Assembly (NCBI GenBank): GCA_964497135.1 | Contig: CAZCDO010000001.1 | Location: 239 to 64,238 of the forward strand | DNA from: an uncultured Verrucomicrobiota bacterium | GTDB lineage: Bacteria > Verrucomicrobiota > Kiritimatiellia > CAIKKV01 > CAIJXV01 | DNA length: 64,000 nucleotides | Reading direction: 5' to 3' | In this document: positions 7,834-54,165 of the stretch, piece after piece | Position numbering within the stretch: position 1 is the stretch's first letter | How the letters are laid out: each line of letters opens with the position of its first letter | Made by a program: the position numbers and the translations under genes | The notes under the pieces: model-generated | What the model was told of the DNA's origin: nothing | Seen by the model: only the letters and a program-made list of their open reading frames with translations | Database searches by the model: none

Positions 7834-7935
7834 TTCTCTCGCGGATAGGGCTTGATGTGAGAGGAGAGAGGCGTATAGTTCCCCGCGATTGCCGAAAAGA
7901 CGGGTTTATGAATTGGATTTTTGAGGGTCACCCAC

Positions 7936-9198: not shown

Positions 9199-9220
9199 AC
9201 CTTGATTCTGCGGAGAAAAC

Positions 9221-9502: not shown

Positions 9503-9571
9503 GTAGTTCAACCGGCCAGCCGAACCACGAGCGGCCCCGTCCGTCGCACCGTGCCTCATCCGTGATATCTA

Positions 9572-9921: not shown

Positions 9922-9983
9922 GGCTCCAAGTTCATGAGGGGATTATTCATTGTTCCAAACACCTGCACGATTACATCTGGCAT

Positions 9984-10116
9984 CGACTAAGCGGTTGGAC
10001 TAAGCGTAACCGACAAAGTGTGGCGATGAAGTGTTGCTTCGCGCTATTCCAGGCCCATCCTCCAAACTCTTAGTCCCACACTTTGTCGGTTACGCTTAGT
10101 CGCCGCGCCTTAGTCA
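9984..10116. repeat. palindromic element built from GACTAAG heptamers with a perfect 26-bp inverted repeat core
   Basis: Left arm gactaagcggttggactaagcgtaaccgacaaagtgtgg (9984-10022). Right arm cttagtcccacactttgtcggttacgcttagtcgccgcgccttagtcag (10068-10116). Core GACTAAGCGTAACCGACAAAGTGTGG is perfectly inverted. GACTAAG occurs 5 times, at 9984+, 9997+, 10068-, 10094-, 10108-. A related half-copy lies at 4509-4560. Confidence 0.55.
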
Positions 10117-10348
10117 GATTGTCCATGCGGACCGGCTTGGCGCGCCGCGCGCGAAGACGGGCCGCATCTGCGGTTTTCCTCAGTGCCCCCGTGGCTCCGT
10201 GGTAAACCTGCCCCTGAGGATCCGGAGAACGAAGAGAATACCCCTCTGCAGGGATCCGTCTTCGTCCAAGCACTACGGCGGGACACGCGCGTCGGGCCAC
10301 CTCGGAAATCTACATCACCTGAATCGTTCCGGTTTACCGGCCTTCCAC

Positions 10349-10431
10349 CATGTCATAAAATGCATAGAAATATCAAAAAATGGACATGGCCAATAGCCGG
10401 CAAAAGAGGTATGATGATAATGGTATGGAAT
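10349..10431 (+). promoter_or_regulatory. conserved AT-rich upstream motif (copy A), candidate promoter/5' leader element of the giant gene
   Basis: catgtcataaaatgcatagaaatatcaaaaaatggacatggc (10349-10392) is ~88% identical to 50713-50755. Weaker similarity continues to ~10431. It lies ~90 nt upstream of ATG 10478. AAGGAG RBS at 10462-10467. Confidence 0.35.
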
Positions 10432-10477
10432 TATTGTTGCAGACTAAACGAATCATTTTTCATCAAGGAGATCCAAG

Positions 10478-20893: not shown

Positions 20894-20907
20894 TTGAAAC
20901 AGAACGA

Positions 20908-21300
20908 TTATCCCCGCCAGAGCAGGAGGCCGGCCACGTTGGTGAAATGAGAGTCACCGGTCACCAGAAAGGATCCACTTTCGGTCGCGTGGGCGGCGAG
21001 CCAGACATCGTTGATGGGGATCGGAGTGCCGGCTTTTCTAAGCCGGTGTTTGATGGTGCCGAAGATATCCGAGGTCTCCTGGGTGGCGGTCAGAATGCGG
21101 ACGGTGGGGCGCCGCAGAAAGTCCTCCAACTGCTCTCGGTTTTTCCGCTCTCTATCCCCGCCTTTAAAGCCGGCATACAGTTCGCCCAAAACAAAGACGG
21201 ACATAAAAACGGTATCGGCGCGGCCCAGCACGTCCAGCACCTCCCTGTCACCGCGGAGCAGGCTCATATAGGCATTGGTATCCAGAAGAACCTTTTTCAT
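20908..21300 (-). CDS. vapC: type II toxin-antitoxin system toxin, PIN-domain ribonuclease VapC
   Basis: MKKVLLDTNAYMSLL... with conserved acidic PIN residues (D at position 7, E ~40, D ~95 with LVTGDSHF). 130 aa. ATG (21300-21298) overlaps the TGA of the upstream antitoxin (ATGA). The ORF track extends to a TTG at 21306. Confidence 0.8.
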   Translation of the reverse strand: MKKVLLDTNAYMSLLRGDREVLDVLGRADTVFMSVFVLGELYAGFKGGDRERKNREQLEDFLRRPTVRILTATQETSDIFGTIKHRLRKAGTPIPINDVWLAAHATESGSFLVTGDSHFTNVAGLLLWRG

Positions 21301-21599
21301 TTCCAATCCTCCGGGTCGATGCGTTGGGTGTCAGCCACCCGGGCCTCAAACTCCCGTGCATCTTTCTCTTTCCAGGTTCCACAGAAACCGGCAAAATCAT
21401 CTCGATGCGGTGGAACAGCCGGCACCTTGATCCCCAATCCCTCCGCCAGGATCTGTTTTATGAGTTCATTCATGCTCAGGGATTGTTCCCGGGCGCGACG
21501 CTTGATCTGTGCCGCCAACTGCTCATCCAGGGCGTGGATCGTAAGTGATTTCACAATGACCTCTTTATGAACCGTTAATTGATTCATGTTGCGAACCAT
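21297..21599 (-). CDS. ribbon-helix-helix antitoxin (VapB/FitA-like)
   Basis: ~100 aa. RHH pattern: beta-strand SLTIHAL, helix DEQLAAQIKRRAREQ, helix SMNELIKQILAEGL. Stop TGA overlaps the vapC start. It appears as the C-terminal tail of a spurious 956-aa antisense ORF. Alternative start at 21587 (MNQLTV). Confidence 0.65.
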   Translation of the reverse strand: MVRNMNQLTVHKEVIVKSLTIHALDEQLAAQIKRRAREQSLSMNELIKQILAEGLGIKVPAVPPHRDDFAGFCGTWKEKDAREFEARVADTQRIDPEDWK

Positions 21600-21611
21600 A
21601 AAATAGAAAAT

Positions 21612-24188
21612 ATGAACCAAACGGTCAAACAAAATACGGCGGCTGACAGGGGGCGTTTTTTGCCCGGCCTCACGCCGCGCTCGCTGTTTGCCAGTCTGTT
21701 TTGCATGCTGTTGGCCGGGATCTATACGCAATACTCGATGGTGATCATTGCGGAAGGGAACCAGAGTCCTGAACAGGTTTTGCCGGTGCCGGCCATGGCC
21801 GTTTTGCTGTTGCTGGTGGGGGTCGTCGGCGCGCTCTATGCGCTGTTCAAGGTGCGCCTGTTGACGCGGGCGGAACTGCTCTGCGTGACGTTTACCCTGT
21901 TCTTTTCCGTTCCGCTGATGACCCAGGGCATGTGGCACCGGTTTGTCGGTCTGATCGCGGCGCCTCTGCGGACCTCCAGTTTCGACTACATCGATGCCTA
22001 CAACGAGAACCTGTGGCCGCACGGCCCCAACCTGCTGCAGGGAAGGCTGATCGAGGGGCGTGTCGAGACCTCCGGAAACGCGCCCGTCTGGGCCGAGCTG
22101 GAGTACGAGGAGGGGCGCCAGGCGCGGCTTCCCCGGCTGAAGAACACAACTCCGGACGAAGTGAGTTCGGTCTCGATCGTCGTGCCGGCGGCGGAGCAGG
22201 GGGATATCCGCGGGGTCGCCAATCCGCACCTGGTCAGCATCCTCGCGCGGGCCCAGGGCATGGAAGCCGAGAGCCTGATCTTCTGCCGGGTCTATGCGGA
22301 TGGAGCGGACTCGGGCAATGAACTGTTCTCCGAACGGAAGGCCGAGAAAAAAACCTATCTGCATAAGCGGGGCTTCGTGCGATTGGGCGCCTACGGCATG
22401 CCGCTGGCCGACCAGTGCCGGTCGACGCTGCGGGTGGAATTCGGTCTGCGGGGCCGGGGCGAAGTGATTCTGGCCGATCCGAAGGGAATGAGCGTCGCTG
22501 CCATCGAAGGGGCGTTCCGGGGACGCCCGATCATGGTGCAATCCGAATACGAGCGCTTGCCGCCCGCGGAGCGACCGCCGGGGATGATCGTCAAGCCGGA
22601 CCGGATGTGGAGTCTGGCCGGTCTGAAGTTTCTCGTCGGCGGCTACATCCCGTTGCGCGAATGGCTGAGACCGGCCCTGGTCTGGTCGGCTTTTGTGTTG
22701 CTGCTGGCGGCGGCGTGTTTCGCCGTGAACGTGATCATGCGCAAGAAATGGGCTGAGAGCGAGCGTTACCCCCTGCCGAACGTGCGCATTCCGCTGGCGT
22801 TGATCGGCGCCGAGGAACCCGGGGAGAGCGCGTTGGGCCGGGTGTGGAGCAATCCCTATATGTGGGCCGGCTTTGGGGTCGCGGTGTTCTGGGGCGGCCT
22901 GAAAGGCTGGCATGCGTTCAACCCGGCGGTTCCTGACCTGTCGATCGACATTGCGCTGGGGCCCTACGTTCAGAATCCCGTGTGGGGTGGCATGTTCAAT
23001 ACCTCGTTTTCGGTCAGTCTGTTCATTGTCAGCATCGCGGTGTTTTTCGAATTGAACGTGCTGATCAGCATGGTGCTGGGCTATTGGATCTGCCGGTCGG
23101 TATTCTGGATCGGACAGGTCACCAACCTTAAGGTAAACATTGGATTTCCCTGGCGCGATCAGCAGGCGGTCGGCGCTTACCTGGGATACTTTTTCATCGT
23201 GCTGGCCTTGTCGCGCAAGTACCTGGTGTCGGTATTCAAGGCGGCCGTGCGGGGCGATTCCCGCGAGGAGGGCGATACGCTGTCGAGCCGTGCGGCGGTC
23301 GGGCTCCTGTTGGGTTGTTGTCTCGGGGCTCTGATCTGGGGGCGGATGGTGGGGGCATCGCTGCTGAGCATGGGCGTGTATTTCGGTTTCCTGGTCATGC
23401 TGGGGTTCGTTACGTCGAAATTTCGCGCTGAATGCGGGTTGCCGTTCGGCTACTTCACCCCGTATAACGCGATGCTGATCGTCTCCCTGTGCGGCGGCCT
23501 GCCGGTGTTCGGTGCGGAGGGGATGCTGGTGGCGCTGTTGCTCTCCGGATTCCTTTCGGTGACGGTGTTTTTCCTGGTGCCGGGGGCGCAGTTCGAACTG
23601 ATCCAACTGGGCAAGCGGATGCGGATCCAGCCGCGGCACATCATCTATACGGCGCTCATCGGTATCCTGGGAGGTCTGTTCATCGGCGGGTGGGTGTTCC
23701 TCTCCAATGCCTATGCCTTTGGAGGTGACAACATCCGGTTTCAGTGGGCGTTCAACGGATTGAACTGGTTCATGCAGACCTTCCGCAGTGAATTGGGGAC
23801 CACGACCGCCGCCTGGCTGCGCGAATCCAGCCCCGCGGCGGTGGGCGGTACGGACTGGGGGGCGCGCATGATGGTCGCCTGGGGCGCGATCGCCATGATC
23901 CTGACGGTGCTCCGGCAACTTTTTTCGGGTTTTTGGTTTCATCCGATCGGGTTCATTCTGGGCAGTTCCAATATGATGGAAGGCGCCGTCTGGGGGAGCC
24001 TGCTGGTCGCGTGGGCCGTGCGGGGGCTGGTGCTCAAGGTGGGCGGGGCCACCAGCGTGAAGAATAAACTCCAGCCCTTTTTTGTCGGGGTGTTTGTCGG
24101 CTCGTTGGTCGTCCTCATGTTGTTCTCGGTGGTGAACAGTCTGAGCGTAACGCACGGGGCTACCCAACTTTACCAGGAGATTCCGTGA
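21612..24188 (+). CDS. polytopic integral membrane protein (~858 aa) with a ~300-aa extracytoplasmic loop; first gene of the ABC/M28-like operon; family not recognised
   Basis: >=10 strongly hydrophobic predicted TM segments, with Gly-rich helices in the C-terminal half. Start MNQTVKQ at 21612. Stop TGA (24186-24188) overlaps ATG of the next gene. Confidence 0.55.
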   Translation: MNQTVKQNTAADRGRFLPGLTPRSLFASLFCMLLAGIYTQYSMVIIAEGNQSPEQVLPVPAMAVLLLLVGVVGALYALFKVRLLTRAELLCVTFTLFFSVPLMTQGMWHRFVGLIAAPLRTSSFDYIDAYNENLWPHGPNLLQGRLIEGRVETSGNAPVWAELEYEEGRQARLPRLKNTTPDEVSSVSIVVPAAEQGDIRGVANPHLVSILARAQGMEAESLIFCRVYADGADSGNELFSERKAEKKTYLHKRGFVRLGAYGMPLADQCRSTLRVEFGLRGRGEVILADPKGMSVAAIEGAFRGRPIMVQSEYERLPPAERPPGMIVKPDRMWSLAGLKFLVGGYIPLREWLRPALVWSAFVLLLAAACFAVNVIMRKKWAESERYPLPNVRIPLALIGAEEPGESALGRVWSNPYMWAGFGVAVFWGGLKGWHAFNPAVPDLSIDIALGPYVQNPVWGGMFNTSFSVSLFIVSIAVFFELNVLISMVLGYWICRSVFWIGQVTNLKVNIGFPWRDQQAVGAYLGYFFIVLALSRKYLVSVFKAAVRGDSREEGDTLSSRAAVGLLLGCCLGALIWGRMVGASLLSMGVYFGFLVMLGFVTSKFRAECGLPFGYFTPYNAMLIVSLCGGLPVFGAEGMLVALLLSGFLSVTVFFLVPGAQFELIQLGKRMRIQPRHIIYTALIGILGGLFIGGWVFLSNAYAFGGDNIRFQWAFNGLNWFMQTFRSELGTTTAAWLRESSPAAVGGTDWGARMMVAWGAIAMILTVLRQLFSGFWFHPIGFILGSSNMMEGAVWGSLLVAWAVRGLVLKVGGATSVKNKLQPFFVGVFVGSLVVLMLFSVVNSLSVTHGATQLYQEIP

Positions 24189-27100
24189 TGACGGGGGACG
24201 GCTCCAACGGACGCGTTGCCCAGGCGATCGGGGCGGCGATATTTGCGGTGCTGACCGTGGTGACGGCCGCCGTCTTCCTCCGCGTTTTTGCGCCGCGATC
24301 GTACGTGCCGCCGACTGCCGGAGCCCCGTCCTACGATCGCACCGCGATGCAGCAGGCGCTGACTCGAGAGGCGGTCCGGGACCAATTGGCGGCCATCGAA
24401 CAGTGCGGTTCGCGCTCGCCGGGCCAGCCGGGCCACGCCGCCTGCGGCCGGCTGATCGCCGAACGCTACGCGCAGGCGGGACTGGAGGTGTTCGAGCAGG
24501 AACTCGACGCGGCCTATCCCGTCTGCTCCGAGGCGCGCCTGACCGGCGACGGCGCGCCGCTGGAGGTGGCGCTCTGGCCGGCCCCGCCTAATCACGTTCA
24601 GCCGATGACGACACCGGAGTCGGGTTTGCAGGGCGAACTGATGTTGATCACCGAGGAGAGCGTGCGCGCCGCCGGCCGTTTCGACGACCAGATCGCGCTG
24701 GTCGACCTGGCCCGGCCGCTATTCAAGGAACTGGGAATCAACCCGGCTCGCTTCGCCGACCTGGGATTCAAGGCGCTGATCGTCGGACATTCCGGAGGGT
24801 TCGAACAGATTCCCTGGCGCAATCTGAAGAGCCTGCGGCTGGGTCTGCCGCTCAACTATGTGCGGCTGATCGCGGACGAGCGCATCTTCGCCTATGCCGG
24901 ACGTCGCGTCCGGCTGGATGTCCGCACCGCCTATACGAATGTTCCCGTTCGCAACATCGTGGGCGTTCTGCATGGACCCCGCGCGGCGCGCGGCGCGGTG
25001 ATCATCAGCGCCGCTTACGACGGGTTTACAGCGTTGCCGGATCTGGCCTCGGGATCGGTGCAGGCTTTGCAACTGGCCCTGCAACTGCGGTTGCTCGACG
25101 GCCTGGCGCCCCATCGTGAAACCCTCCAGCGCGATGTCATCTGGGTGTCGTGCGGCAGCGACTACATGGCCCAGAACAGCCTGAATCAACTCCTGTCCGC
25201 CATCGGTCGTCCCGGAGAAGCGGCCGTTGCCAAGGCCCGCCTGGACGCCGATCTGCGCGAGCAGACGGAGAAAGCCGGCGCCCTGACGTCCGTGGTGGCG
25301 CTTTTCTCCGATGAACGGTTCGGGCGAGAGGCGGGTCCGAGCGGGACCGCCCTGGACGGGATCGATGCCGAAGCCCGGCTGATTTTCGACGAAGAGTTCC
25401 GGACCGTTCTCAGGCAGCGGGTCTTCGATGCCGGTGAACGCCTGCTCCAGGCGCAGATCGCGTTCGAGCATAACCCGAAGGATCTGACCGGTCCCGCCTA
25501 TCGCGCCTTTCGGGCCGCCAAACAGGATTTTGACCGGCTGAATACGGCATCGGCGTTGCCGGTCCGGCGTTTCCTGGAGCGCCCTTCGGATGGCTATGAT
25601 CTTCGGGCGGCTCTGCTGGCACGGTTCCAGGTGTTGAGGGGCTACCACGACACCCGGGTCCGGCGGTTGCGACAGGAACTGGCGCTGAATGCCCTGATGG
25701 CGGGTTACGATGAAGTGCTGGTCCTGGCGCCCAGCCTGAACCCGGCGGCCGTTCAGCCGAAACGCGAAATTCTCAGTTTCTCCGGGGGATCGGGAATCCC
25801 GCATGCCGAAGCTGCGGATGCCTTCCGCCGCCTGCTTCAGGAGGCGGTATTCACACTCGGCCTGCAGGATCGGGTGAGCATCGATTTCCGCGGCGCCCGG
25901 CACGGCGACGCCATGGCCGCGTTTCTGTCCGACCTGCCGCTCCAATCCCAGCCCTGGTCGGTCATGTCCTATCCGGCGTTCGCACTGATCAGTCCGCGGA
26001 ACGACTATGCGCATTTCATTTCGCCGGTTCCCTCGCCCCTGATTACGAACCTCACCAGCCTGGCCGGGTCCCTGCAGGTGCTGGGCGAGGCGACGCTGTC
26101 GGCGGCCCATGGCGCCGGACGGTTTCCCGCGCTCCAGCGGAATTCAACGTATGCAACGCGGGGGACGGTTTATGCCGCCGGGATCGGTAATGCCGTGGTC
26201 CCGAATTTTTCCGTGGCCGGGGCGCTGGTGTTCGCCAAAGCGGAGGCCGGTCCGGCCCCTCTCGGGTTCCAGCGACGTCCGATCTTCTTCGCGGATCCGT
26301 ATGGCCATTTTGATCACCCGGTGATGACGATGCCGTTTCCGAACTGGGCGGACACTTTTATCCCGGAGGCGGCCCACTATGGCCCGGGCGGCACGATTGA
26401 CTATTACAAGGACAGCGGACTGACGGCGCAGAATATTTATAAATCGGATATCCTGCCCGGCGACGGGTCACCCGTCAATCTGATCCTTTACCGCGGCACA
26501 GCGGTGTCGATCCTCAATCGAGTCAATCCGCAGACCATGCGCAGTTTTACGGGGGCGGCTTTTCTGCGTCCCTCCGGCTTGACGCCGTTTGCCAGCACCG
26601 CCAAAATCGTCAACGACGATGGTATTTGCGATTTCATCGATCCCAAGGCCCGGTTCTTCGTCACCCTGAAGGCGGGCTCGCCGGATAACGAGCAGGTGGC
26701 CGAGACGCGCGCGTTCTGCCTGAACACCCGCGCCCCCGGTTTCGTTCCGGACCCCGCGATCGAGATCGATGGCCCCGGCTATCTGGCGCAGGATACCCCC
26801 GTGGTGCGGGAGATCGCCGCGGAATCCGCCTCCTCGATGGCCCTCCTGGCCGCCAAACGCATCCGGTTGCAGGAACCCTACGGGATGGTGGACGAGATGA
26901 CGACCGCGTTCCAGGAGCGGAGTCTGCAACTGGCGGCGGAGGCCGGGCGTGCCGACCGGCCGGCGTTGACGCGATTAGGCGAGTTTCGGCAGGCCATGAC
27001 CTACCTGATCCTGAATCACCCGGTCATCCGGGGGTCGATCGCCGAAGCCATCTGGGGCATCCTCTGGTATATGGGGTTGCTCGTGCCGTTTGTCTTCTTC

Positions 27101-29191
27101 TTCGAGAAGCTCATGTTCGGATTCACCGATATCCGTAAACAGTTGTTGGCGGAGGGCGTCATCTTCCTGGTGGTGTTCGGGTTGCTCTGGTTTTTGCATC
27201 CGGCCTTCAAGATGATCCGGTCCTCGGTCATGATTCTTTTGGGGTTCGTCATCATTCTGATCTCGGGCGGCATCACCCTGTTGCTGTCGTCCAAATTCCG
27301 CGAAAACCTCGATGCCTTGAAACGGCTTCAGGGCTCGGACAAGGGCGCTGAGGTGAACAAGGCGGGAATCCTGATGACGGCGTTCATGCTCGGGTTGAAT
27401 AACATGCACCGTCGCAAGGTGCGCACGGGACTGACCTGTGCCACGCTGGTGCTGATGACTTTCGTCATGATCTGTTTTACCTCCGTGCGCAGCAACATCG
27501 TCGACCAGGAAAAGGCCCTGTCCAAGGCCGCCTACCAGGGATTGCTGGTCAAGGAGGCGCGATTCAAGCCAATCGCCGCCAGCGAGATTTCAGCCCTCGA
27601 CAGCCGGTTTGGCGAGATGTTCACGGTCAACGAGCGGGTGGCCCTGGTGGGACGGCGCGACTGGAATCTGGCGCAACTGGTGCCGCCGGAGGTGGAGGTG
27701 GCCGTCGGCGAGGCGCCGGAGATCAGCCGCCAGACCGCGAAGTCGGTCCTGTTGCTGCGGCAAACCGAGCCCCTGCGCGCCAGCCTGCGCCTGCTCACCA
27801 CGAACGGCTGGTTTTCGGCGGCGCAGGCTGCGCAAACCCAGGGACCCTATCCCGTGCTGTTGCCGGACACGATGGCCGAAAATCTCGGGCTGACCGTCGC
27901 GGCGGTGGATACGGGTTCTGTGAAAGTGCGCATCAATGGGGTGGTTTTTGCGGTGCACGGGGTGTTCGAATCATCCTCTCTATCGCAGGCGGGCGATCTC
28001 GATGGTGACAACCTGTTACCGTTCGATACGGAGGGACTGGTCAACCCGGAGATCAGCGACAGCCAGGTGCTGGCCGAACGCGAGGACCCGCGCGTTGCGG
28101 CGGGGCAAACCGTGATAGCGCTGGTGGACGCGTTTCCCGTTCAGGTTAACGGGGCCTGGCGGACGTTGTCCGTGGCGGTTGACATGGGCCAGACCGGGTT
28201 TGCGTCCGCCAAGCGTGAAATCGCCACGTATCTGGAGCAGACCGGGCGGGAAACGTGCTACGGCCTCGACGGTACCGCCTATATCGGGCGCCGCGCCCGC
28301 GCCAAAGCGGTGGGCGGTCTGGCCGATCTGTTGATACCGTTGATCATTGCCGCGCTGACCGTCCTCAATACCATGAAAGGTTCGGTTTACGAACGGCGCG
28401 ATGAAATCTTCGTCTATAACGCCGTCGGCATTGCGCCGCGCTATGTTTTTTTCATGTTCATCGCCGAGGCCCTGGTGTATGCGGTGGTCGGCGCGGTACT
28501 CGGCTACCTGCTCAGTCAGGGGACGGGGCGGGTTCTGACCGCGATGGGGTGGACCGGCGGATTAAATATGAATTTCACCTCGCTATCCACGGTCTATGCC
28601 TCGCTGGCCATCGCGGCGGCCACGCTGTTATCCACCTACTTCCCGGCGAAATCGGCCATGGAAATCGCCAAGCCGGCGGAGAAGGCCGGCTGGGAACTAC
28701 CCCCGGCCGAAGCGGATGAGATGACGTTCGCCCTGCCGTTCACGTTTACGCATTTCGATCGCATTGCCGTGATGGGCTTTTTCCACCAGTATTTCGTCAA
28801 CCACGGGGAGGGCAGTGCCGGGCCGTTTTTTGCCTCCGAGCCGCGGCTGACGTTGTGCGATCGGCGCGACCCCCTGGCGGACGACGGCTACATTCCGAGC
28901 ATCGAGGTGCCCGTCTGGCTCAAACCGTTCGATCTGGGCGTGTCCCAACGCATCGTGATCGAACTGGCCACGGATGCCGACACCGGCGAATACATCGCCA
29001 CGATGCGCCTCCTGCGCCTCACCGGGACGAAGGAGGCCTGGTTGCGTCTGAACGCACCCCTGGTGAGCCGCATTCGTCGCCATTTTCTGCATTGGCGGGC
29101 CGTGTCCGACGATTTGAAACAGGAATTCCATGGCCGGGCCCGGGAACTTTTGGAAGCGCACGTGGCCGAGGGGGGGCGTCTGCATGGCTAA
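24188..29191 (+). CDS. fusion protein: N-terminal signal-anchored M28-peptidase-like (probably non-catalytic) domain + multi-TM linker + MacB/FtsX-type ABC permease (TM1, periplasmic domain, FtsX 3-TM domain) + C-terminal tail
   Basis: M28-like block NIVGVLHGPRAARGAVIISAAYDGFTALPDLASGS, where canonical AHYDS has become AAYDG. Probable EE region reads CGSDY. MacB-like TM1 GLNNMHRRKVRTGLTCATLVLMTFVMI. FtsX domain LIPLIIAALTVLNTMKGSVYERRDEIFVYNAVGIAPRYVFFMFIAEALVYAVVGAVLGYLLS. Confidence 0.65.
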   Translation: MTGDGSNGRVAQAIGAAIFAVLTVVTAAVFLRVFAPRSYVPPTAGAPSYDRTAMQQALTREAVRDQLAAIEQCGSRSPGQPGHAACGRLIAERYAQAGLEVFEQELDAAYPVCSEARLTGDGAPLEVALWPAPPNHVQPMTTPESGLQGELMLITEESVRAAGRFDDQIALVDLARPLFKELGINPARFADLGFKALIVGHSGGFEQIPWRNLKSLRLGLPLNYVRLIADERIFAYAGRRVRLDVRTAYTNVPVRNIVGVLHGPRAARGAVIISAAYDGFTALPDLASGSVQALQLALQLRLLDGLAPHRETLQRDVIWVSCGSDYMAQNSLNQLLSAIGRPGEAAVAKARLDADLREQTEKAGALTSVVALFSDERFGREAGPSGTALDGIDAEARLIFDEEFRTVLRQRVFDAGERLLQAQIAFEHNPKDLTGPAYRAFRAAKQDFDRLNTASALPVRRFLERPSDGYDLRAALLARFQVLRGYHDTRVRRLRQELALNALMAGYDEVLVLAPSLNPAAVQPKREILSFSGGSGIPHAEAADAFRRLLQEAVFTLGLQDRVSIDFRGARHGDAMAAFLSDLPLQSQPWSVMSYPAFALISPRNDYAHFISPVPSPLITNLTSLAGSLQVLGEATLSAAHGAGRFPALQRNSTYATRGTVYAAGIGNAVVPNFSVAGALVFAKAEAGPAPLGFQRRPIFFADPYGHFDHPVMTMPFPNWADTFIPEAAHYGPGGTIDYYKDSGLTAQNIYKSDILPGDGSPVNLILYRGTAVSILNRVNPQTMRSFTGAAFLRPSGLTPFASTAKIVNDDGICDFIDPKARFFVTLKAGSPDNEQVAETRAFCLNTRAPGFVPDPAIEIDGPGYLAQDTPVVREIAAESASSMALLAAKRIRLQEPYGMVDEMTTAFQERSLQLAAEAGRADRPALTRLGEFRQAMTYLILNHPVIRGSIAEAIWGILWYMGLLVPFVFFFEKLMFGFTDIRKQLLAEGVIFLVVFGLLWFLHPAFKMIRSSVMILLGFVIILISGGITLLLSSKFRENLDALKRLQGSDKGAEVNKAGILMTAFMLGLNNMHRRKVRTGLTCATLVLMTFVMICFTSVRSNIVDQEKALSKAAYQGLLVKEARFKPIAASEISALDSRFGEMFTVNERVALVGRRDWNLAQLVPPEVEVAVGEAPEISRQTAKSVLLLRQTEPLRASLRLLTTNGWFSAAQAAQTQGPYPVLLPDTMAENLGLTVAAVDTGSVKVRINGVVFAVHGVFESSSLSQAGDLDGDNLLPFDTEGLVNPEISDSQVLAEREDPRVAAGQTVIALVDAFPVQVNGAWRTLSVAVDMGQTGFASAKREIATYLEQTGRETCYGLDGTAYIGRRARAKAVGGLADLLIPLIIAALTVLNTMKGSVYERRDEIFVYNAVGIAPRYVFFMFIAEALVYAVVGAVLGYLLSQGTGRVLTAMGWTGGLNMNFTSLSTVYASLAIAAATLLSTYFPAKSAMEIAKPAEKAGWELPPAEADEMTFALPFTFTHFDRIAVMGFFHQYFVNHGEGSAGPFFASEPRLTLCDRRDPLADDGYIPSIEVPVWLKPFDLGVSQRIVIELATDADTGEYIATMRLLRLTGTKEAWLRLNAPLVSRIRRHFLHWRAVSDDLKQEFHGRARELLEAHVAEGGRLHG

Positions 29192-31280
29192 AATCGACCA
29201 GGAATTGGAACAGTACCGCAACCTGCTGGCGACCCCGGACACCTATGAGGAGGGGTTCGGCTGGATGACGGTCGCCGGCATCCTGTTCTGCGGGTTCATC
29301 ATGATGCCCGGCGCCATCTACCTCGGGTTGATGACCGGCGGCAGTATGGGCAGTGCAGCCACCTGGGTGACGGTGATTTTGTTCAGCGAGGTCACCCGGC
29401 GCGCGATGAAGACCCTCAGCAAGGGACACCTGGTCGTCCTCCTGCATGCCGCGGGCGTCATGATGGCCGGCAGTGCCCTGTTTCCCGGCGGACCCTTCGG
29501 CGGGCTGGTTTACCGGGCCTTCCTGGTGACCTCCGATGCCGCCCGCGATATGGGGATGCGCGATGCCTTCCCGGCCTGGTGGTGTCCCAAGCCCGACAGT
29601 CCGGCCATCGCCGAACGGTTGTTGCTGCACAGCGACTGGCTCCAGCCGATCGCCCTGCTGGCGTTCATCGCCGTCATCGGGTTGGTCAAAAAATACACGC
29701 TCGGCTATTTCTTTTTCCGCCTTTGCAGCGATGTCGAGCGGTTGCCCTTTCCGCTGGCGCCCATCAGCGCGCAGGGCGCTCTGGCGCTGTCGGATTCCAC
29801 CCGGAAGGAGGAGGACCTGGAGGCCGCTGAGAAGCAGGTTGACGAGACGGGCCGCAAGGTCTTTTCCAAGTGGCGGATTTTTTCGCTGGGTTCGTTGATC
29901 GGCATCGCCTTCGGGATCGTGCAGGTCGGTGTGCCGGCGATTACCGGCCTGATGCTGGACAAGCCGGTGTTTCTGATTCCGCAACCCTTTGTCGATTTGA
30001 CCACGCTGACCGAGAGCCTGTTGCCGGCGACGCCCACCGGCCTGGTGATCGATCCCGGCATCATCCTGATCGGCATGGTTTTGCCGTTTTGGGCGGTCAT
30101 CGGCACGTTCAGTGCCATTGTCGTGACGTTGGTGGCCAATCCCGTCCTGCAGATGGGCAATGTCCTGGCCCAGTGGCAGCCGGGGATGAACACGATCAAC
30201 ACCCAGTTTGTGAACTCGGTTGATTTCTGGATGAGTTTCGGGTTCGGCACCTCGGCGGCGATCGCGCTGATCAGTATTTATTCGACCGTGCGGGACGTGG
30301 TGCGGCGCGCCCGCCAGGCGCGCCGCGCGCGGGACTCCGGGCAGCTCGCCATCGGGCGCCAGGCCGAGATCGGCAGTCTCTGGAAAACGCCCGATATCGG
30401 CCGCGGCGACTACCCGATGTGGCTGGCGCTGACCGGCTATGTCCTGGCGGCCGGAGCCATGGTGATCGTGTGTGACCGGTTGGTTCCGGGCATCACCGGA
30501 TTCCTGCTGGTATTCGCCTTCCTCTACAATCCCTTTGTATCCTATGTCAACGCGCGCCTGCTGGGGTTGGTCGGGCAACAGGTCGATATCCCCTTTGTGC
30601 GGGAAGGGGCCTTTATTCTCTCCGGTTGCAAGACGCTGGACATCTGGCTGGCGCCGGTGCCGATCGAAAACTACGGCAGCATGGCGCAGTCCTTCCGCGT
30701 CAATGAACTCACCGGGGTGCGGTTCCGCTCGCTGATGAAGGCCGACCTGGTCGCCTTGCCCGCCCTGTTCCTGATGTCGCTGTTGTTCTGGGCCTTCATT
30801 TGGAAATCCAATGCGGTGCCCTCCGACATCTACCCGGCCGCGCGCCTCAACTGGGAACTGGCGGCCAAGCAGAACACCCTCCTGTATTCGGCCACTTTTT
30901 CTCCGGACACCGCCGGCGGCGTCCGCGATATCACCCATTTTGCCGACACCGAATTCGCCAAGGCGTTGCATCCGAAGTTCATCGCGGCCGGCAGCGTGCT
31001 GACGTTGCTGTTGTTCGGAATCTTCAGCGCGTTCAGTCTGCCCACGCTCTTTATCTACGGGATGATCCGCGGGTTCGGCCAGCTTCCGCATGTGATGCTG
31101 CTCGAAATTGCCGGGGCGCTCCTGGGGCGGTATGTGCTCCAGAAGAAGTTCGGATCGGGCCCGTTTTTGCGAATGGCCCCGGCCCTGCTGGCGGGGTATT
31201 ACACCGGCGTCGGCCTGATCGGTATGGCCACGATCGCCATGAACCTCATAAAAAATGCCGTTTCCAGCGCACCCTTTTAG
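29184..31280 (+). CDS. polytopic integral membrane protein (~698 aa), transporter-like (OPT-like topology possible); family not recognised
   Basis: ~14-16 hydrophobic predicted TM segments. Start MAKIDQELEQ at ATG 29184 overlaps the upstream stop (29189-29191). Confidence 0.55.
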   Translation: MAKIDQELEQYRNLLATPDTYEEGFGWMTVAGILFCGFIMMPGAIYLGLMTGGSMGSAATWVTVILFSEVTRRAMKTLSKGHLVVLLHAAGVMMAGSALFPGGPFGGLVYRAFLVTSDAARDMGMRDAFPAWWCPKPDSPAIAERLLLHSDWLQPIALLAFIAVIGLVKKYTLGYFFFRLCSDVERLPFPLAPISAQGALALSDSTRKEEDLEAAEKQVDETGRKVFSKWRIFSLGSLIGIAFGIVQVGVPAITGLMLDKPVFLIPQPFVDLTTLTESLLPATPTGLVIDPGIILIGMVLPFWAVIGTFSAIVVTLVANPVLQMGNVLAQWQPGMNTINTQFVNSVDFWMSFGFGTSAAIALISIYSTVRDVVRRARQARRARDSGQLAIGRQAEIGSLWKTPDIGRGDYPMWLALTGYVLAAGAMVIVCDRLVPGITGFLLVFAFLYNPFVSYVNARLLGLVGQQVDIPFVREGAFILSGCKTLDIWLAPVPIENYGSMAQSFRVNELTGVRFRSLMKADLVALPALFLMSLLFWAFIWKSNAVPSDIYPAARLNWELAAKQNTLLYSATFSPDTAGGVRDITHFADTEFAKALHPKFIAAGSVLTLLLFGIFSAFSLPTLFIYGMIRGFGQLPHVMLLEIAGALLGRYVLQKKFGSGPFLRMAPALLAGYYTGVGLIGMATIAMNLIKNAVSSAPF

Positions 31281-31289
31281 GTGCCGCCC

Positions 31290-32330
31290 ATGAGCCAACC
31301 CATGCCAGACCAGATTAGCCTGCCGTTGCGAATCGCCTTTGAGGTGGTGGTGCAGGGGTTGCGCATCCGCTTGGGCCGCTCCCTCGTCACCCTGACCGGG
31401 GTGACCTGCGGCATCGCTTTCCTGATGTCGATTCTGACCGGCCAGCTCGTCAAAAAGGGCGTGGCGGCCGAGGATGCCTGCCGGGAGGAGGTCGCCCGCA
31501 TGGGGAGTTTCATCCGGTCCGACCTGCCGAACTTGCGCGGCAAGGCGATCGGCCTGATCGGGAGCGGGCGCCTCGACGAGGTCGAGACGCGGGTGCTCGA
31601 ACGTCTGCGAGCTGACGGTGACAGTATCCTGCTGATGGCCGACGGTCTGGCCCCCGAACCGCGGCGGCCGATGGCGGGGTGTGAAGTCGTGGAGGGCGGG
31701 CAACTGACCGAGCGGGCCGCCGTGATCTTCGTGATGGGCGACGGTCCGGTGCCGGCGTTCGACTGGCGGCGGTTTTTCGATCGGTCGCGGAATGCCATGG
31801 CGGCGTACACCCGGACCGGGGGCGCGAGGTTGGCCACGGACCGGGAGGAGCGGTGGGTCCGCTTGTCGAGGGACTGGCCGCCGGACGAAATTGCGCGCAA
31901 GGCGCTACAGGCGCGGCAGGCGCGTTTTCGCGGAATCTGGGTCGGTGTGATTTCGCTGCTGGTGACGGTCATCGGCATTTCCAACGCCATGCTGATGTCG
32001 GTCACGGAACGCTTCCGCGAGATCGGCACGATGAAATGTTTGGGGGCTTTGTCGGGTTTTGTCACGCGCCTCTTCGTGCTGGAGGCGTCCCTGCTGGGGT
32101 TCGTGGGCGGACTGGCGGGCGCGGTGGCGGGTGCGGTCTTCGCCGTGAGCGTATACACCTTGACCTACGGGGCCGGCCTCGTTTTTGCGTCGCTGCCGGT
32201 GGCGTCGATCCTGTCGTTCGGCGCAGTCAGCCTGGTCGCGGGGATTCTGTTGTCGATTGTGGCGGCGCTCTATCCGGCCCGCGTGGCGGCATCCATGGTG
32301 CCGGCGACGGCCCTGAGGTCAACGTTATGA
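31290..32330 (+). CDS. FtsX-family (MacB/LolC-type) ABC transporter permease
   Basis: TM1 (LVTLTGVTCGIAFLMSILTG), ~180-aa periplasmic domain, and a C-terminal FtsX 3-TM module (GISNAMLMSVTERFREIGTMKCLGA...LYPARVAASMVPATALR). ATG 10 nt after upstream stop. Confidence 0.7.
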   Translation: MSQPMPDQISLPLRIAFEVVVQGLRIRLGRSLVTLTGVTCGIAFLMSILTGQLVKKGVAAEDACREEVARMGSFIRSDLPNLRGKAIGLIGSGRLDEVETRVLERLRADGDSILLMADGLAPEPRRPMAGCEVVEGGQLTERAAVIFVMGDGPVPAFDWRRFFDRSRNAMAAYTRTGGARLATDREERWVRLSRDWPPDEIARKALQARQARFRGIWVGVISLLVTVIGISNAMLMSVTERFREIGTMKCLGALSGFVTRLFVLEASLLGFVGGLAGAVAGAVFAVSVYTLTYGAGLVFASLPVASILSFGAVSLVAGILLSIVAALYPARVAASMVPATALRSTL

Positions 32331-33124
32331 AGAAGGACCCGATGGAACCCATTGACCCCCGCCGTTTTCAAGCGCTCTTCAATCCGCCCGCCGGTCAGGG
32401 AGCCCCCGTTGTGATCCGCGGTGTCGACATCCGCAAGGTGTATCGCCGGGGCACCCAGGAGACACACGCCTTGCGCGGCGCTACGCTGGACGTCTACCGC
32501 GGCGAATACCTGTCGATCATGGGCCCCTCCGGATCGGGAAAAACGACGTTGTTCAACGCGATTGGCGCCCTGGTCAAGCCGACCTCGGGCAAGGTCTATA
32601 TCGATCAGGTCGATATTGCGCAACTCGACACCGAGGAATTGGCGTGGCTTCGATGCCGGAAGATCGGCTACGTGTTCCAGACCTACAATCTGATCCAGGT
32701 GATGACCTGTTTGGAAAATGTGACCCTGCCGATGAGTTTTGCCGGCCTGAGCGGCGAGGAGGCGCGCGAAAAAGGCGTCCGGATTTTGAAAATGGTGGGG
32801 CTCAGCCATCGCGCCCTGCACAAGCCGGCGGAACTGTCGGGCGGTCAGCAGCAGCGCGTCGCGATCGCGCGGGCGCTGGCCAATTCGCCGGCCATCATTC
32901 TCGCCGATGAACCCACGGCGAATCTGGACCAGACGACTGGGCAGGAGATCATCGACCTGTTCACCCGTTTGCAGCGGGACCTGGGCGTGACCATTATTTC
33001 CGCCACGCACGATCTCAAGATGCTTCAGGCTTCAAACCGCATCCTGTGGATCGAGGACGGCTGCATTGTGAAATCGGCCCGCCCCGAGGAGATCAATTTC
33101 GCCACCGATGAATTCGGGCATTGA
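32327..33124 (+). CDS. ABC transporter ATP-binding protein (MacB/LolD-type ATPase), copy 1
   Basis: Walker A GPSGSGKTT. Signature LSGGQQQRVAIARAL. Walker B ILADEPT. ATG overlaps upstream TGA (ATGA). Confidence 0.85.
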   Translation: MKKDPMEPIDPRRFQALFNPPAGQGAPVVIRGVDIRKVYRRGTQETHALRGATLDVYRGEYLSIMGPSGSGKTTLFNAIGALVKPTSGKVYIDQVDIAQLDTEELAWLRCRKIGYVFQTYNLIQVMTCLENVTLPMSFAGLSGEEAREKGVRILKMVGLSHRALHKPAELSGGQQQRVAIARALANSPAIILADEPTANLDQTTGQEIIDLFTRLQRDLGVTIISATHDLKMLQASNRILWIEDGCIVKSARPEEINFATDEFGH

Positions 33125-33134
33125 GAGATCAATC

Positions 33135-33869
33135 ATGGATACGATCATTCGAACCGAGAACGTGAAAAAACGTTATGTGACCGGCGACCAGGAATTGTGG
33201 GCGTTGAAGGGGATCGATCTCGATATCGGCCGCGGCGAATTTCTCTCCATCATGGGACCTTCCGGATCGGGCAAGTCGACGCTGTTCAACCAGATCGGCG
33301 CGCTCGACGTGCCCACCGAGGGGCGCGTGCTGTTCGAGGGGCAGTCCGTGTTCGACATGACCGAAAAACAGCAGGCGTGGTTCCGGTGCAACCGCATCGG
33401 GTACATCTTCCAGACGTTCAACCTGATCCAGGTGATGACCGCGTTGCAGAACGTGACCCTGCCCATGGTCTTCCAGGGGACCCCCCGGGAGGATGCCGTC
33501 CGGCGCGGCACGGCCATTCTGGAACGCGTGGGACTCGGCCATCGCCTGCATAACAAACCGTTCGAGCTCTCCGGCGGCCAGCAACAGCGCGTGGCTGTGG
33601 CCCGCGCGCTGGCCAATACGCCCAGTGTGGTCCTCGCCGATGAACCCACGGGTAACTTGGACACGAAGACCGGCGCCGAGATCATCGAACTGCTCAAGGA
33701 GCTGAACCGCGCGGAAGGGGTGACCGTGATTTGTTCCACCCACGATCCGAAGATGCTGCGCAGTTCCGATCGGATTTGCTGGATGCTCGACGGGCGGCTC
33801 GACAAAATCATCCAGCAGGCCGATTTTTCGTTGGCGGCCATGAAGCAGGACACCCAGGGCCGTGAGTGA
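33135..33869 (+). CDS. ABC transporter ATP-binding protein (MacB/LolD-type ATPase), copy 2 (paralog)
   Basis: Walker A GPSGSGKST. Signature LSGGQQQRVAVARAL. Walker B VLADEPT. ~50-60% identical to copy 1 by eye. Confidence 0.85.
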   Translation: MDTIIRTENVKKRYVTGDQELWALKGIDLDIGRGEFLSIMGPSGSGKSTLFNQIGALDVPTEGRVLFEGQSVFDMTEKQQAWFRCNRIGYIFQTFNLIQVMTALQNVTLPMVFQGTPREDAVRRGTAILERVGLGHRLHNKPFELSGGQQQRVAVARALANTPSVVLADEPTGNLDTKTGAEIIELLKELNRAEGVTVICSTHDPKMLRSSDRICWMLDGRLDKIIQQADFSLAAMKQDTQGRE

Positions 33870-34281
33870 TCCCGTCTCCAGACCGGTGGCGGATGGGACG
33901 GCGGGGCCGGTCGCGGCCGACCTGGCCCAGTTGTTAAACGGGGTGCCCTATCTGAATCCGGCCGTTGAAACCCTCCACGATCCCCAGCGGGGATGTGCGC
34001 TCTCGTGGAAGAGTGAGTCGGGGAACCGGCGCGGCTGGCGGGCGCTCCTGATGGGGCCGGTGCGGCGCCGGCGACTGGAACTCGACGACCTGGGTCGCCG
34101 TACGGTTGAACTGTGCGACGGCCGCCGCAGGGTGGGGGAAATTGCCGCCCAGCTCGCCGCCGAACACCAGGTTGAACTCGGGGTCATGCAACGCGCCACC
34201 CTGGCCTTTCTCGCGGAACTCGTCCGTCGCAACGCCGCCCAGATTGTGGATGATTCGAAGGAGATTCGGACCGGGTCATAA
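33862..34281 (+). CDS. PqqD-family (RiPP-recognition-element-like) peptide-binding/chaperone protein
   Basis: 139-aa ORF, GTG start overlapping the ATPase stop. PqqD-like core RRRLELDDLGRRTVELCDGRRRVGEIAAQLAAEHQV...ATLAFLAELVRRN (winged-helix wHTH with a 3-strand sheet pattern). Assignment by eye. Confidence 0.5.
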   Translation: MSDPVSRPVADGTAGPVAADLAQLLNGVPYLNPAVETLHDPQRGCALSWKSESGNRRGWRALLMGPVRRRRLELDDLGRRTVELCDGRRRVGEIAAQLAAEHQVELGVMQRATLAFLAELVRRNAAQIVDDSKEIRTGS

Positions 34282-34414
34282 AGTGACAATAGATATCAGA
34301 ATTTGGTCATTGAGTGTTCGAATGCTTTGCGGGATTATTATGAATTTCCGCTTTTGAGTGGGCGCTGCGAATGGCCGCCGGCGATCCATCACCGCAAACA
34401 AAGAACGGAATGCC

Positions 34415-37400
34415 ATGAAGAATTCGATTCGGACCCTGATAGCGCTGGTCGTCTCAACCAGTTGTTTCGGTGCCGGTGAAAGCAGGGTTTTATTCAAGGA
34501 CGCCTTTGACGGCACCGGGGACAAGCCCGCCGGCTTTACCGAGGCCTGTTCCATCAGCGAATATCCGCCCAGCCTCAAATCGCTCGCCTTTCGGCCTGTG
34601 AACGGCAAGCCGACCGAAGTCCATCAGGGGCTTTTTACCTTGCCGAAGGGGACCGCGGAGTGCAAGGACTACGAATTGAGCTTCAAGTTCTTGTTCCCGC
34701 GTGCGAGCAAAAAAGAATTCACATTGAACATCGTCTCCGGGAATCCCGGCGAGAAGCGGGGACCGGTTTCGGAACTCATCACGATTTCGGAGAAGACGAT
34801 CGCCATTCGCCCGGACGCCTCGGGAAAGATCGTCTTCCCGACCAAGGGCGTCCCGGCGCCGGACATCCTGTTGATGCCGGACGGTGTATGGCACCAGGCG
34901 TTTGTCAAGGTCAGGGGAAAATCTCTCGAACTATTCATCGAGAACGATGGATGCGTGCGCAAGTTCGCGGAGGTGCAGCGTCGCAACGCGCCGTTGATCG
35001 GTTTCAACTTCGCCGGCTCCACGGCGGTGGATTTCGATGACCTTGAGGTTCGCCGGATCGATCTGGCCTCGGCGCGGGATTTCCGGGGCGAGGAGGGCGT
35101 CCGAACTCGCCAAGCCGCGGAAGCCATGGCCGGGATTCCAGCGGGTGCTTGGGTGGCGCATACCAACGGCGAAGCTCTCCTGATGGCGATTCCGGATGGA
35201 ACCGTGCTGGCGGCGGCGAGTTTCCGCATCGGTACGTACCCCGGGGCGATGACGATCAAGATCGGGTATGCCGACGGCTCGGTGAAAGACATTGCCGTGA
35301 AGACCTTTGCGTCGGAATACGCGAAGAAGGTTCTCCGGCAAGACAAGGTGGTCGAGGAGAAAGTGGTCCTCCCCGATGCGGGGATGAAGTTCACTGAGCA
35401 GCAGGCCAAAGACCCGAAGTCCGCTTGGAGCCTGAGCTACAATACGCGGCCGAACCTTCAATACCGCTACACACCAGAGGGCGAACTGCGGATCGTTTCC
35501 AACTGGGAGAGCTTCCGGGCGGCCTCGCGGAAGTTCATCCGGTTCGAACTGCGTCCGGACGAGAAGGGCGCACAGATCTGGATCGATGGCCGCTATGCCG
35601 GCCGCTTTGACCATGCGGTGAAGCTCAAAACGCTGACCTTTGTCCTGCCGGCGAACGGCGCGGTGATGGGCCAGGAAATTTCATCGAAACCGTTCAGCAG
35701 CAGATATCTGGCGCTCGATGTGAGCCAGATCGCCAACCCCGGCTTACTGACCGATGCCACGCTCTCGTTTCCCAAAGGCGCGAACACCATCTCTGGAATT
35801 CCGTTTCTGGTCACCGACGGACCCGGCAATGCGGATACCGGGGTCTGCCGCGAGAATCTCGGCAGTTTCGCCCTGGAATGCGATGGATACCTGTCGCGCA
35901 CACCGTTCGAAGGCATGCCGGAAAGTCTGCTCTTGAGTGTTCCCCTGGCTCAATACAACCGGGCCTGGGCGCTTTGTGCCGTTGAGGACGATCCCGACAA
36001 GGTGTCCGTGATCACTGCGCGCCTGACGAAATTCCTGCCGGGCTCTGCGGTCGGGCGGGGTCCGGCCATCGCCGACACCGCGATCACCCTGCCCCGCTCC
36101 GGCGAACCCCTGCCGGAGGGCGTGCAGAAGGTGGGCGAGGTGAAGACCGGCGGCAAGACCCTGTCCCTTTATCTTGTGGAGTTCAAGATGGACACCGGCA
36201 ACCTCCAGGAGATCATTTTTCAGGAGCGCCCCGTCTGGCTGGATTTCGAACTGCTCGGGAAGCGCAACGACAAGGACAACTTTTATTTCGACCGCTCGCG
36301 CAAACCCTCGGACGATATCAGCGGCGTTCATGTTTTCGCCGCCACCCTCGAGCGGTCGCCGGTGGAGATGTGGATCATGCCGGCCGTGTTCGGCAATATC
36401 TACCAGCCCGGCGAGAAGCCCGCGATGACCGCCACCTTATCCTCGGTCGAAAAAAGCTCGTGCCGGTTGGAGTGGGCCGTCCGCGATATCCACGGAAAAA
36501 TTATCGAGCAGGGCAGTCGGAACGTCTCCTTCGCGCGGGCCGGTGAGGAAACGAAGATCGAAACCCCGTTCGCACAGAAGGATCTGGGCTGGTACGGCGT
36601 GGACTACCGGCTCACCGGCAAGGACGGGCGCGAACTCCTCCAGCATACGGCGTCTTTTGCGCGGATCGCCGCCGACACGCGCAATGCCGGCTATGAGTCG
36701 CCGTACTTCGCGTGGAACTTCGGCGGCGCGCACGGGACGATCGGGGACATCGCCGTTTCCGGCCCCTTGCTCCTGAAAGCCGGCATTCGCAGCACGCACG
36801 TCAAAAGCGAGACGGACGGCGCGCCGTGGAAGCTGACGATGAGTCAACTTCCCCGCCTGGCGCCCAAAAGCAAAGATCCCCAGAAAGCGGAAAAAGAACT
36901 CGAGGTGCTGATCAAGAAAGCCATCTCAAATTATCCGCACGCCTCCATGGCTTTGATTTTCCACGAAAGCGGCGGCGGCCCGTTCCCCCTCGAACTGCTG
37001 GGCGGCAAAACCGAGGTGGATGACCGGCAGGCGGCGGATGACCGGAACCGGGCAGAGCATGTGGCGATGATCGCCAAGGCCTACCGCAAATATGCCCCGC
37101 AGATCAAGCTGGTCGTGGGCAATTCCGGCACGGCCACGCCGGGTTTGCTGGCCCAACTCTTTCGCGCCAAGGTTCCGCGTGAATATATCGACTATATCGG
37201 CGAAGAGACCGTCGGCATGACGATGCCTCCTGAACTCAGTGTAGCAAAGGAAAACTGGATACTCCGGGAAACCGCCCGCGTTTTCGGTTACGGTGAAATT
37301 CCGGTCAGCGCCTGTTACGAGTGGAAGTGCCGCCGTTCGCGGAATCTCGGCCTGGAGCGGCTCGCGGAATGGAATGTGCGCGATATTCTGATTGCTCATG

Positions 37401-54145: not shown

Positions 54146-54165
54146 ACACAGATAAGGTAATTCCC

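Follow-up and report, generated by a model that had tools for sequence, protein, structure and literature searches.

A PqqD/RRE-fold protein linked to homologous FtsX/ABC/OPT-like transport operons in Lentisphaerota, Kiritimatiellota and Planctomycetota

Domains of the PqqD family, or RiPP recognition elements (RREs), serve as a class-independent marker of gene clusters for peptides that are synthesized ribosomally and modified after translation (RiPPs), and all characterised RREs bind the leader peptides of their substrates. In this study, we analyzed a gene for a protein of this family, 139 amino acids (aa) long and encoded in an open reading frame (ORF) at 33862-34281 in a 64,000-nucleotide (nt) stretch of DNA from an uncultured Verrucomicrobiota bacterium (class Kiritimatiellia; contig CAZCDO010000001.1), the whole of which is called the window below. 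The closest described proteins are PqqD itself (PDB entry 5SXY) and the lasso B1 proteins TbiB1 (5V1U) and TfuB1 (6JX3), with which the 139-aa protein shares a winged-helix core of three strands and three helices and, as in PqqD and lasso B1, the form of a small stand-alone protein. It differs from them in its extra N- and C-terminal strands, in an 18-residue insertion between strands b2 and b3, in its basic character and in its partner, which is a membrane transport operon rather than PqqA/E, lasso B2/C, a radical SAM or YcaO enzyme, or a precursor.

The operon can likewise be compared with a described group, the type VII ABC systems of the MacB/LolCDE/FtsEX kind, with which it has in common FtsX permeases with large extracytoplasmic domains and ATPases of the MacB/LolD/FtsE type. 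To these it adds OPT-like and DUF6785/6784 proteins, an FtsX protein of 1668 aa whose ectodomain is nicastrin-like, and the cytoplasmic RRE protein. To our knowledge, none of these added components is known from MacAB, LolCDE or FtsEX. Our literature search found no paper on DUF6785, on the operon, or combining PqqD, an ABC transporter and FtsX, and the association of PqqD with transporters is not mentioned in the two RRE-Finder papers. A census of 2025 left about 40% of more than 90,000 RREs, those that lack a recognisable RiPP neighbour, without explanation, and transporters of the present operon type are not mentioned in it (PMC12710340). In our analysis, one set of such RREs resolved into a coherent subfamily tied to an uncharacterised transport operon. 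The protein family as such is not new, as NCBI annotation already reads "PqqD family protein"; what is new is the partnership with a transport machine. With a probability of about 60%, we consider the 139-aa protein to be a dedicated cytoplasmic accessory subunit of a membrane transport machine that is conserved in the Planctomycetes-Verrucomicrobia-Chlamydiae (PVC) superphylum.

First, the identity of the protein was assessed from its sequence and predicted structure. Pfam PF05402 (PqqD) matched residues 67-124 with 38.1 bits (E 1.9e-9; gathering cut-off 23.4). An AlphaFold2 (AF2) model, for which a family alignment of 37 sequences was the input, had a mean predicted local distance difference test score (pLDDT) of 86.9 and a predicted TM-score (pTM) of 0.75, and its best Foldseek matches in the PDB were 5SXY, 5V1U and 6JX3 (E 2.7e-4 to 1e-3, target-normalised TM-scores 0.74-0.84, root-mean-square deviation 2.2-2.5 A). 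The predicted strands are an extra b0 (residues 27-31), b1 (36-40), b2 (44-50), b3 (69-74) and an extra C-terminal strand (126-130), and the predicted helices are a1 (76-84, containing GRRTVEL), a2 (91-102) and a3 (106-122); the insertion between b2 and b3 (residues 51-68) is basic and aromatic and carries a conserved Trp. Because the confident model matches leader-peptide-binding RREs best, the PqqD-like identity proposed by the initial annotation, which had been made from the sequence alone, is confirmed at the level of predicted structure: the ORF encodes a genuine PqqD/RRE-fold member of the PF05402 superfamily, and the protein is soluble, cytoplasmic and basic.

The gene is the last of the seven genes of a + strand operon in the window:

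21579-24188, + strand: first operon gene, polytopic membrane protein with DUF6785 and DUF6784, 869 aa (Pfam DUF6785 2.9e-62, DUF6784 9e-16)
24185-29191, + strand: giant FtsX-type permease, 1668 aa (Pfam FtsX 7.8e-13, MacB_PCD 0.015; transmembrane scan)
29130-31280, + strand: OPT-like polytopic membrane protein, 716 aa, likely start ATG 29184 (Pfam OPT 5.2e-9)
31281-32330, + strand: small FtsX/LolC-like permease, 349 aa, four transmembrane (TM) segments and a periplasmic loop (Pfam FtsX 3.1e-13)
32327-33124, + strand: ABC ATPase 1 of the MacB/LolD/FtsE type, 265 aa (Pfam ABC_tran 3.4e-33)
33108-33869, + strand: ABC ATPase 2 of the MacB/LolD type, 253 aa (Pfam ABC_tran 1.6e-32)
33862-34281, + strand: PqqD/RRE-fold protein, 139 aa, isoelectric point (pI) 8.8, GTG start (Pfam, AF2, Foldseek, family alignment, synteny)

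Its GTG start codon (33862-33864) and the TGA stop codon of ATPase 2 (33867-33869) produce an overlap of 8 nt, which can be read in CAG GGC CGT GAG TGA; that the start overlaps the stop had been correctly described in the initial annotation. All junctions within the operon are overlapping or abutting (24185/24188, 29184/29191 if ATG 29184 is the start, 31280/31281, 32327/32330, 33108/33124 and 33862/33869), and the only gap beside the PqqD gene measures 76 nt (34282-34357). Thus, there is no space for a precursor gene within the operon.

Second, we compared the position of the PqqD gene in related loci (designated by L numbers). A scan of species-representative genomes yielded eight loci from metagenome-assembled genomes (MAGs) of Lentisphaerales, Victivallaceae and Kiritimatiellae, in which the position was judged where upstream sequence exists, and a reverse search of metagenomes with the OPT-like protein yielded 22 loci. 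The companion genes encode an FtsX permease, a giant FtsX protein whose M28/nicastrin-like ectodomain is inactive, an OPT-like protein, one or more ATPases of the MacB/LolD type and, in many cases, a DUF6785/6784 protein. In the first of three gene orders (order A), found in the window and in MAGs of Lentisphaerales and Victivallaceae, the PqqD gene directly follows ATPase 2 (the window, L007, L008, L011, L012 and L013). Seven further loci (L001-L006 and L010) have kept it after ATPase 2 despite the insertion of a restriction-modification cassette between the two genes; six of these, L001-L006, are metagenome contigs with the same gene order and the source of a cluster of proteins 49% identical to the 139-aa protein. 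Orthologues in the same position of related operons are 38-70% identical to it, and the conservation that the initial annotation had wished to see checked is therefore present. The cassette itself (8072-9996 in L001, the same in L002-L006 and L010) is of type II, encodes a DNA_methylase protein of 400 aa and an RE_EcoO109I protein of 241 aa, and lies on the operon strand with spacers of 4-7 nt and the PqqD gene downstream.

In order B, a PqqD-family gene stands between the two ATPase genes (metagenome contigs L024, L028 and L030; hidden Markov model (HMM) E 1e-15 to 6e-21), and the OPT-like proteins of these three loci are 48-57% identical to that of the window. In order C, it belongs to the operon head in Planctomycetota/Phycisphaerae, as observed in all eight long contigs sampled (L040 and L042-L048). 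The sequence of genes there is a protein or domain here named X, PqqD, FtsX (approximately 500-900 aa), an ABC ATPase, a giant FtsX protein of 1671-2105 aa that gives an M28 hit, and an OPT protein; L040, which is ended by the contig edge, shows a DUF6785/6784 gene upstream followed by X-PqqD and FtsX only. Both the N-terminal ectodomain and the membrane part of the window's giant FtsX protein can be aligned with its Planctomycete counterpart, and the small FtsX proteins align as well. Orders A and C thus have homologous operon proteins, which makes all three gene orders versions of one system. The genes downstream of the PqqD gene are not conserved, and the partner to which it is linked is therefore the ABC operon rather than whatever gene comes next. 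Taken together, these observations support a tie between the PqqD gene and homologous FtsX/ABC/OPT-like operons across Lentisphaerota, Kiritimatiellota and Planctomycetota. The functional link with the transporter that the initial annotation had drawn from the start-stop overlap is thereby strengthened, and its label "orphan" is misleading for a protein that regularly forms part of a conserved system.

Third, the PqqD-like proteins of these operons form a subfamily of their own, basic in character, whose genes keep company with one homologous gene set. A first homology search with the 139-aa protein found three clusters only, with members named as Lentisphaerae and Kiritimatiellia MAG proteins. 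A second search found 243 clusters, whose named members come from Phycisphaerae, Planctomycetaceae and Planctomycetota MAGs, and an exhaustive profile search gave 328 subfamily representatives at E<1e-3, most of them 120-150 aa long and aligned over nearly the full profile, beyond the Pfam domain as well as within it. The signature of the subfamily begins with a strand GVPxLxPxVE, followed by b1, b2 and the basic/aromatic insertion with its conserved Trp, and continues with R-x-[LV]-x-L-D-x-x-G...D-G leading into helix a1; a C-terminal strand is also typical. The members sampled are all basic (pI 8.8-11.5). The 139-aa protein agrees with the subfamily in length, N-terminal strand, Trp-containing insertion, motif and the location of its gene beside FtsX/ABC/OPT-like genes.

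In Planctomycetes, the subfamily has an additional partner. Domain X, a soluble protein of approximately 275-315 aa that has neither a Pfam match nor a TM segment or signal peptide, either has a gene of its own, which overlaps the start of PqqD, or forms part of a PqqD fusion protein of 370-466 aa, and it is the sole domain found fused to, or encoded just upstream of, the subfamily. It occurs at 10001-11263 in L042, at 9111-10447 in L043 and in L044-L048, always at the head of the FtsX-ABC-FtsX(M28)-OPT operon. The AF2 model of one X-PqqD fusion (P0165; pLDDT 80.4, pTM 0.72) contains two modules of a beta-sheet plus helix, then the RRE, and the best PDB matches of its X part were PsbP (E 1.9e-5), the tandem immunity protein TplEi, DcrB, Tsi3, EagT6/SciW and Mog1. 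Domain X is thus predicted to be a non-enzymatic tandem binding module of the PsbP/DcrB/Eag/Mog1 kind. Its likeness to Eag/DUF1795 and to PsbP/DcrB/Mog1-fold proteins is one of fold only (target-normalised TM-score approximately 0.45-0.6, with no sequence or Pfam match), and, unlike the setting of Eag/DUF1795 chaperones, no type VI secretion genes lie near the domain X loci. Searches by phmmer and HMM found no homologue of domain X in the window or in operons of orders A and B.

The remaining operon products are consistent with a transport machine of the MacB/LolCDE type (type VII), with FtsX domains in two proteins, ABC_tran in two, a matching topology and a weak MacB_PCD match. All NCBIfam equivalogs scored below their cut-offs against the operon (LolD 232/307.75, MacB 211/966, FtsE 207/264.85, DarD 210/375, lolCE 51/362; the LolD and DarD values are those of ATPase 2, and the lolCE value is that of the small FtsX permease), and in Pfam scans none of the operon proteins matched a membrane-fusion/HlyD family. 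The giant FtsX protein consists of an N-terminal TM segment, an ectodomain of approximately 920 aa, four TM segments, a second ectodomain of approximately 275 aa, to which the weak MacB_PCD match belongs, and the C-terminal FtsX domain, and its orthologues in related loci are 57-67% identical. In profile searches against the PDB, the first 340 or so residues of its large ectodomain (protein residues ~60-400) matched PA/M28 aminopeptidases (2EK8, 7.7e-13; YwaD), and the same profile matched nicastrin (6.5e-6) and the transferrin receptor. The M28 zinc ligands are replaced in 11 of 11 aligned sequences, which argues for a binding domain and not a peptidase; the ectodomain is probably a non-catalytic, receptor-like binding domain. 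It resembles the catalytically dead M28-PA domains of nicastrin and the transferrin receptor in the profile match and in the replaced ligands, and it differs from them in being bacterial and in being fused to an FtsX permease with eight TM segments.

The OPT-like protein is the most conserved operon-specific protein (48-77% identity in the 22 metagenome loci). Before its TM1 it carries an acidic cytoplasmic tail, KIDQELEQYRNLLATPDTYEEGFGW (29184-29270), whose motif xD[KR]ELEQYRxLxxxPxxFE[DE]GFxW is kept almost unchanged from Lentisphaerae to Planctomycetes. The 869-aa DUF6785 protein, with a likely ATG near 21613 and approximately 12 TM segments predicted by TM scan, has homologues in L024, L028, L029, L030 and L040. 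Between its TM2 and TM3 lies a soluble insertion of approximately 230 aa (residues ~115-345) with no Pfam match, which is typical of operons of the window type and missing in the Planctomycete homologue of L040; that this insertion might be a hidden domain X was rejected (hhalign probability 0.05). No similarity between the DUF6785 and OPT-like proteins was detected by BLASTP, and neither of them had a sequence homologue in the PDB. Orthologues of ATPase 1, whose ATG overlaps the stop codon of the small FtsX gene (ATGA), are 70-85% identical. Promoter and terminator scans at 33000-35000 and 20500-22000 gave nothing beyond shuffled expectation.

If the 139-aa protein is an accessory subunit of this machine, it would dock on the cytoplasmic face of the membrane complex, with two candidate surfaces for this, helix a1 (GRRTVELxDG), which is conserved within the lineage, and the insertion of basic and aromatic character between b2 and b3. 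As is the case for all characterised RREs, a short peptide in extended form might be gripped in the groove between b3 and a3 through beta-strand addition, and the protein could then couple the bound partner to the ATPase cycle. Peptide binding is in itself a prediction for this protein. The most likely ligand would be the cytoplasmic tail of a partner subunit, and an unmodified peptide or protein cargo would be the alternative; the conserved acidic N-terminus of the OPT-like protein is a candidate, as it might serve as a docking peptide for the basic RRE protein. Should this be correct, the subfamily would represent a false positive for RiPP genome mining, and the RRE fold would work as an accessory or adaptor subunit of a transporter, a role outside natural-product synthesis. 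The operon would also gain a soluble, easily purified handle on its ligand and function in a host group whose envelope biology is poorly understood.

Several observations weigh against an accessory subunit of this kind. Three contigs (L021, L029 and L036) have sequence past ATPase 2 and no PqqD gene, which means that the gene is frequent in the operons and not obligatory in cis. In a Kiritimatiellae MAG (L014), the PqqD gene (9896-10390, + strand) lies 2.8 kb from a reduced operon (2463-7119, - strand) that comprises an OPT-like protein, FtsX and a single ATPase and lacks a giant FtsX gene upstream; in a Lentisphaerales MAG (L015), the gene (9944-10408) lies between SDR and GDSL genes, with no operon within 10 kb. 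Thus, the protein is either dispensable or can be encoded in trans. In addition, the family-wide conserved residues of the RRE protein (L74, D75, G78, L84, D86, G87, I94, F116 and L120) resemble a structural core and mark no binding surface. As for the candidate ligand, the acidic tail of the OPT-like protein occurs even where an operon has no PqqD gene beside it.

Among the alternative explanations, a cargo adaptor survives best, although we regard it as doubtful. Here the RRE would recognise unmodified peptides or proteins, encoded elsewhere, by a leader-like segment and either hand them over to the membrane complex for export or capture them after import by the OPT-like protein. The top structural matches 5V1U and 6JX3 are leader complexes, which, together with the leader-binding habit of all characterised RREs, agrees with this idea, as do the similarity of domain X to PsbP/DcrB binding modules and to Eag/DUF1795 chaperones, which hold cargo segments for secretion, and the peptide themes of the operon (an OPT-like transporter and an M28/nicastrin-like ectodomain). 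The ATPases are also related to exporters of RiPPs and bacteriocins (DarD, lactococcin-972 ABC), but the scores of DarD and the bacteriocin ABC proteins are far under the family cut-offs. Moreover, a candidate cargo gene was conserved beside none of approximately 20 operons, and we know of no transmembrane substrate path from the cytoplasm in transporters of the FtsX/MacB type. A broader form of the idea, to which we give equally little credence, is that the RRE fold, away from RiPP biosynthesis, has become the cytoplasmic recognition subunit of a hitherto undescribed envelope machine of the PVC superphylum, where it selects or holds unmodified peptide or protein cargo for translocation, which would amount to a new kind of ATP-coupled peptide or protein transport with a leader-recognition step. 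Tentatively, FtsX proteins bearing a nicastrin-like receptor ectodomain might act in this machine as mechanotransmitters, and the OPT-like and DUF6785 proteins as channels, next to the ATPases, with the tandem PsbP/Eag-like chaperone domain joining the RRE protein in Planctomycetes.

It is much less likely that the protein is a canonical RRE of a RiPP pathway whose maturase and precursor lie elsewhere in the genome, with the ABC operon as exporter or immunity pump. The PqqD family match and the RRE fold would fit such a role. FtsX-type ABC systems export some RiPPs, darobactin among them, and a DarD match was obtained. A Radical_SAM/BATS gene is located approximately 8 kb downstream in L001-L006, but it is absent from the window and the other loci, and no RiPP enzyme recurred in about 20 related loci covering the three operon architectures and three phyla. 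Pfam scans of large ORFs picked across the 64 kb detected no Radical_SAM, YcaO, LanB/C, lasso B2/C or PqqA/B/C/E protein, and a CxxxCxxC motif was found in no six-frame ORF of at least 150 aa in the window; the statement of the initial annotation that RiPP maturases and pqq genes are missing from the 64 kb holds for both searches. No modifying enzyme, fused or adjacent, and no precursor gene was found, as an RRE-dependent RiPP cluster would demand, and neither a B2 protease nor an asparagine-synthetase-like cyclase C, the companions of lasso B1, was found in the window or related loci; the likeness to the lasso B1 proteins 5V1U and 6JX3 is one of structure only. The 139-aa protein scored 23.5 bits against the PQQ-biosynthesis PqqD equivalog TIGR03859 (cut-off 46) and also stayed far under the cut-offs of the NCBIfam equivalogs for GeoRSP PqqD and ApyI.

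A precursor was also sought among small ORFs. For 13 loci, we compared every ORF of 30 aa or more in the six frames with every other, and each conserved cluster proved to be an operon gene or a shadow frame, so that no conserved small ORF stood beside the operons; fast-evolving precursors with fewer than 30 aa, or those falling short of blastp E 1e-4, are missed by this test. The initial annotation had suggested that a leader-guided, RiPP-like substrate is specified elsewhere or by a tiny ORF, and had proposed a genome-wide search for small ORFs. Given the outcome in the 13 loci, the lack of a recurring RiPP enzyme and the predicted non-enzymatic nature of the fusion partner, this suggestion gains no support from our data. 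A further point against such a pathway is that RREs act in cis with their enzymes in about 60% of known cases, the remaining ones lacking an explanation (PMC12710340). The best explanation of these results is that the 139-aa protein is not part of a RiPP or PQQ pathway.

Just as improbable as a RiPP-pathway RRE is an autoregulator of the operon, that is, a winged-helix protein that binds nucleic acid and no peptide. The RRE fold is a variant of the winged helix-turn-helix (HTH), the family is strongly basic, and the gene stands at an operon end, first or last; yet it lies between two ATPase genes in three operons and is fused to a PsbP-like domain of 300 aa in Planctomycetes. A putative transcription regulator (3DEE) was among the weak structural matches of the model (E 1.4), whereas the best matches are all peptide-binding RREs. 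The conserved positions of helix a3 (A112, L114, F116 and L120) are hydrophobic and not polar or basic as expected of a recognition helix, and the Pfam scan of the protein returned no HTH match. Finally, a chance ORF or decaying remnant without function, for which the absence of the gene from three related contigs is the only argument, is already refuted by conservation, in view of the coding-type GC content at third codon positions (GC3, 0.757; neighbouring genes 0.68-0.85), the significant Pfam score, the confident fold and intact orthologues that hold their position even past the restriction-modification insertion.

In the window, the transport operon is embedded in a region resembling a polysaccharide-utilisation locus, and these flanks are not conserved in related loci. 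Pfam matches characterise the neighbourhood as one of the glycan-degradation type, with a giant LamG/PKD/DUF2341 protein, three PF12831 FAD oxidoreductases, an AraC regulator, heparinase II/III, GH20, DUF4832/4874, melibiase, a GDSL esterase and beta-helix proteins. Upstream of the gene for the 2595-aa LamG/PKD/beta-helix protein, a segment of approximately 1.2 kb (9234-10478) holds only short overlapping ORFs on both strands, and the preceding segment (7906-9234) has long ORFs on both strands with low GC3 and no Pfam match. The PF12831 FAD-dependent oxidoreductase paralogues are encoded at 18266-20893, 53989-55935 and 55972-58992, dispersed among genes for glycoside hydrolases, heparinase, GDSL and beta-helix proteins, and two of them have duplicated or split domains. 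Between the first of these genes and the operon lies a pair of the VapBC type, composed of a PIN toxin (20908-21306, - strand, 132 aa; Pfam PIN 1.8e-15) and its partner, a FitA-like ribbon-helix-helix antitoxin (approximately 21300-21560, - strand). The + strand ORF at 20872-21570 is, given its GC3 of 0.59, a probable shadow of this pair.

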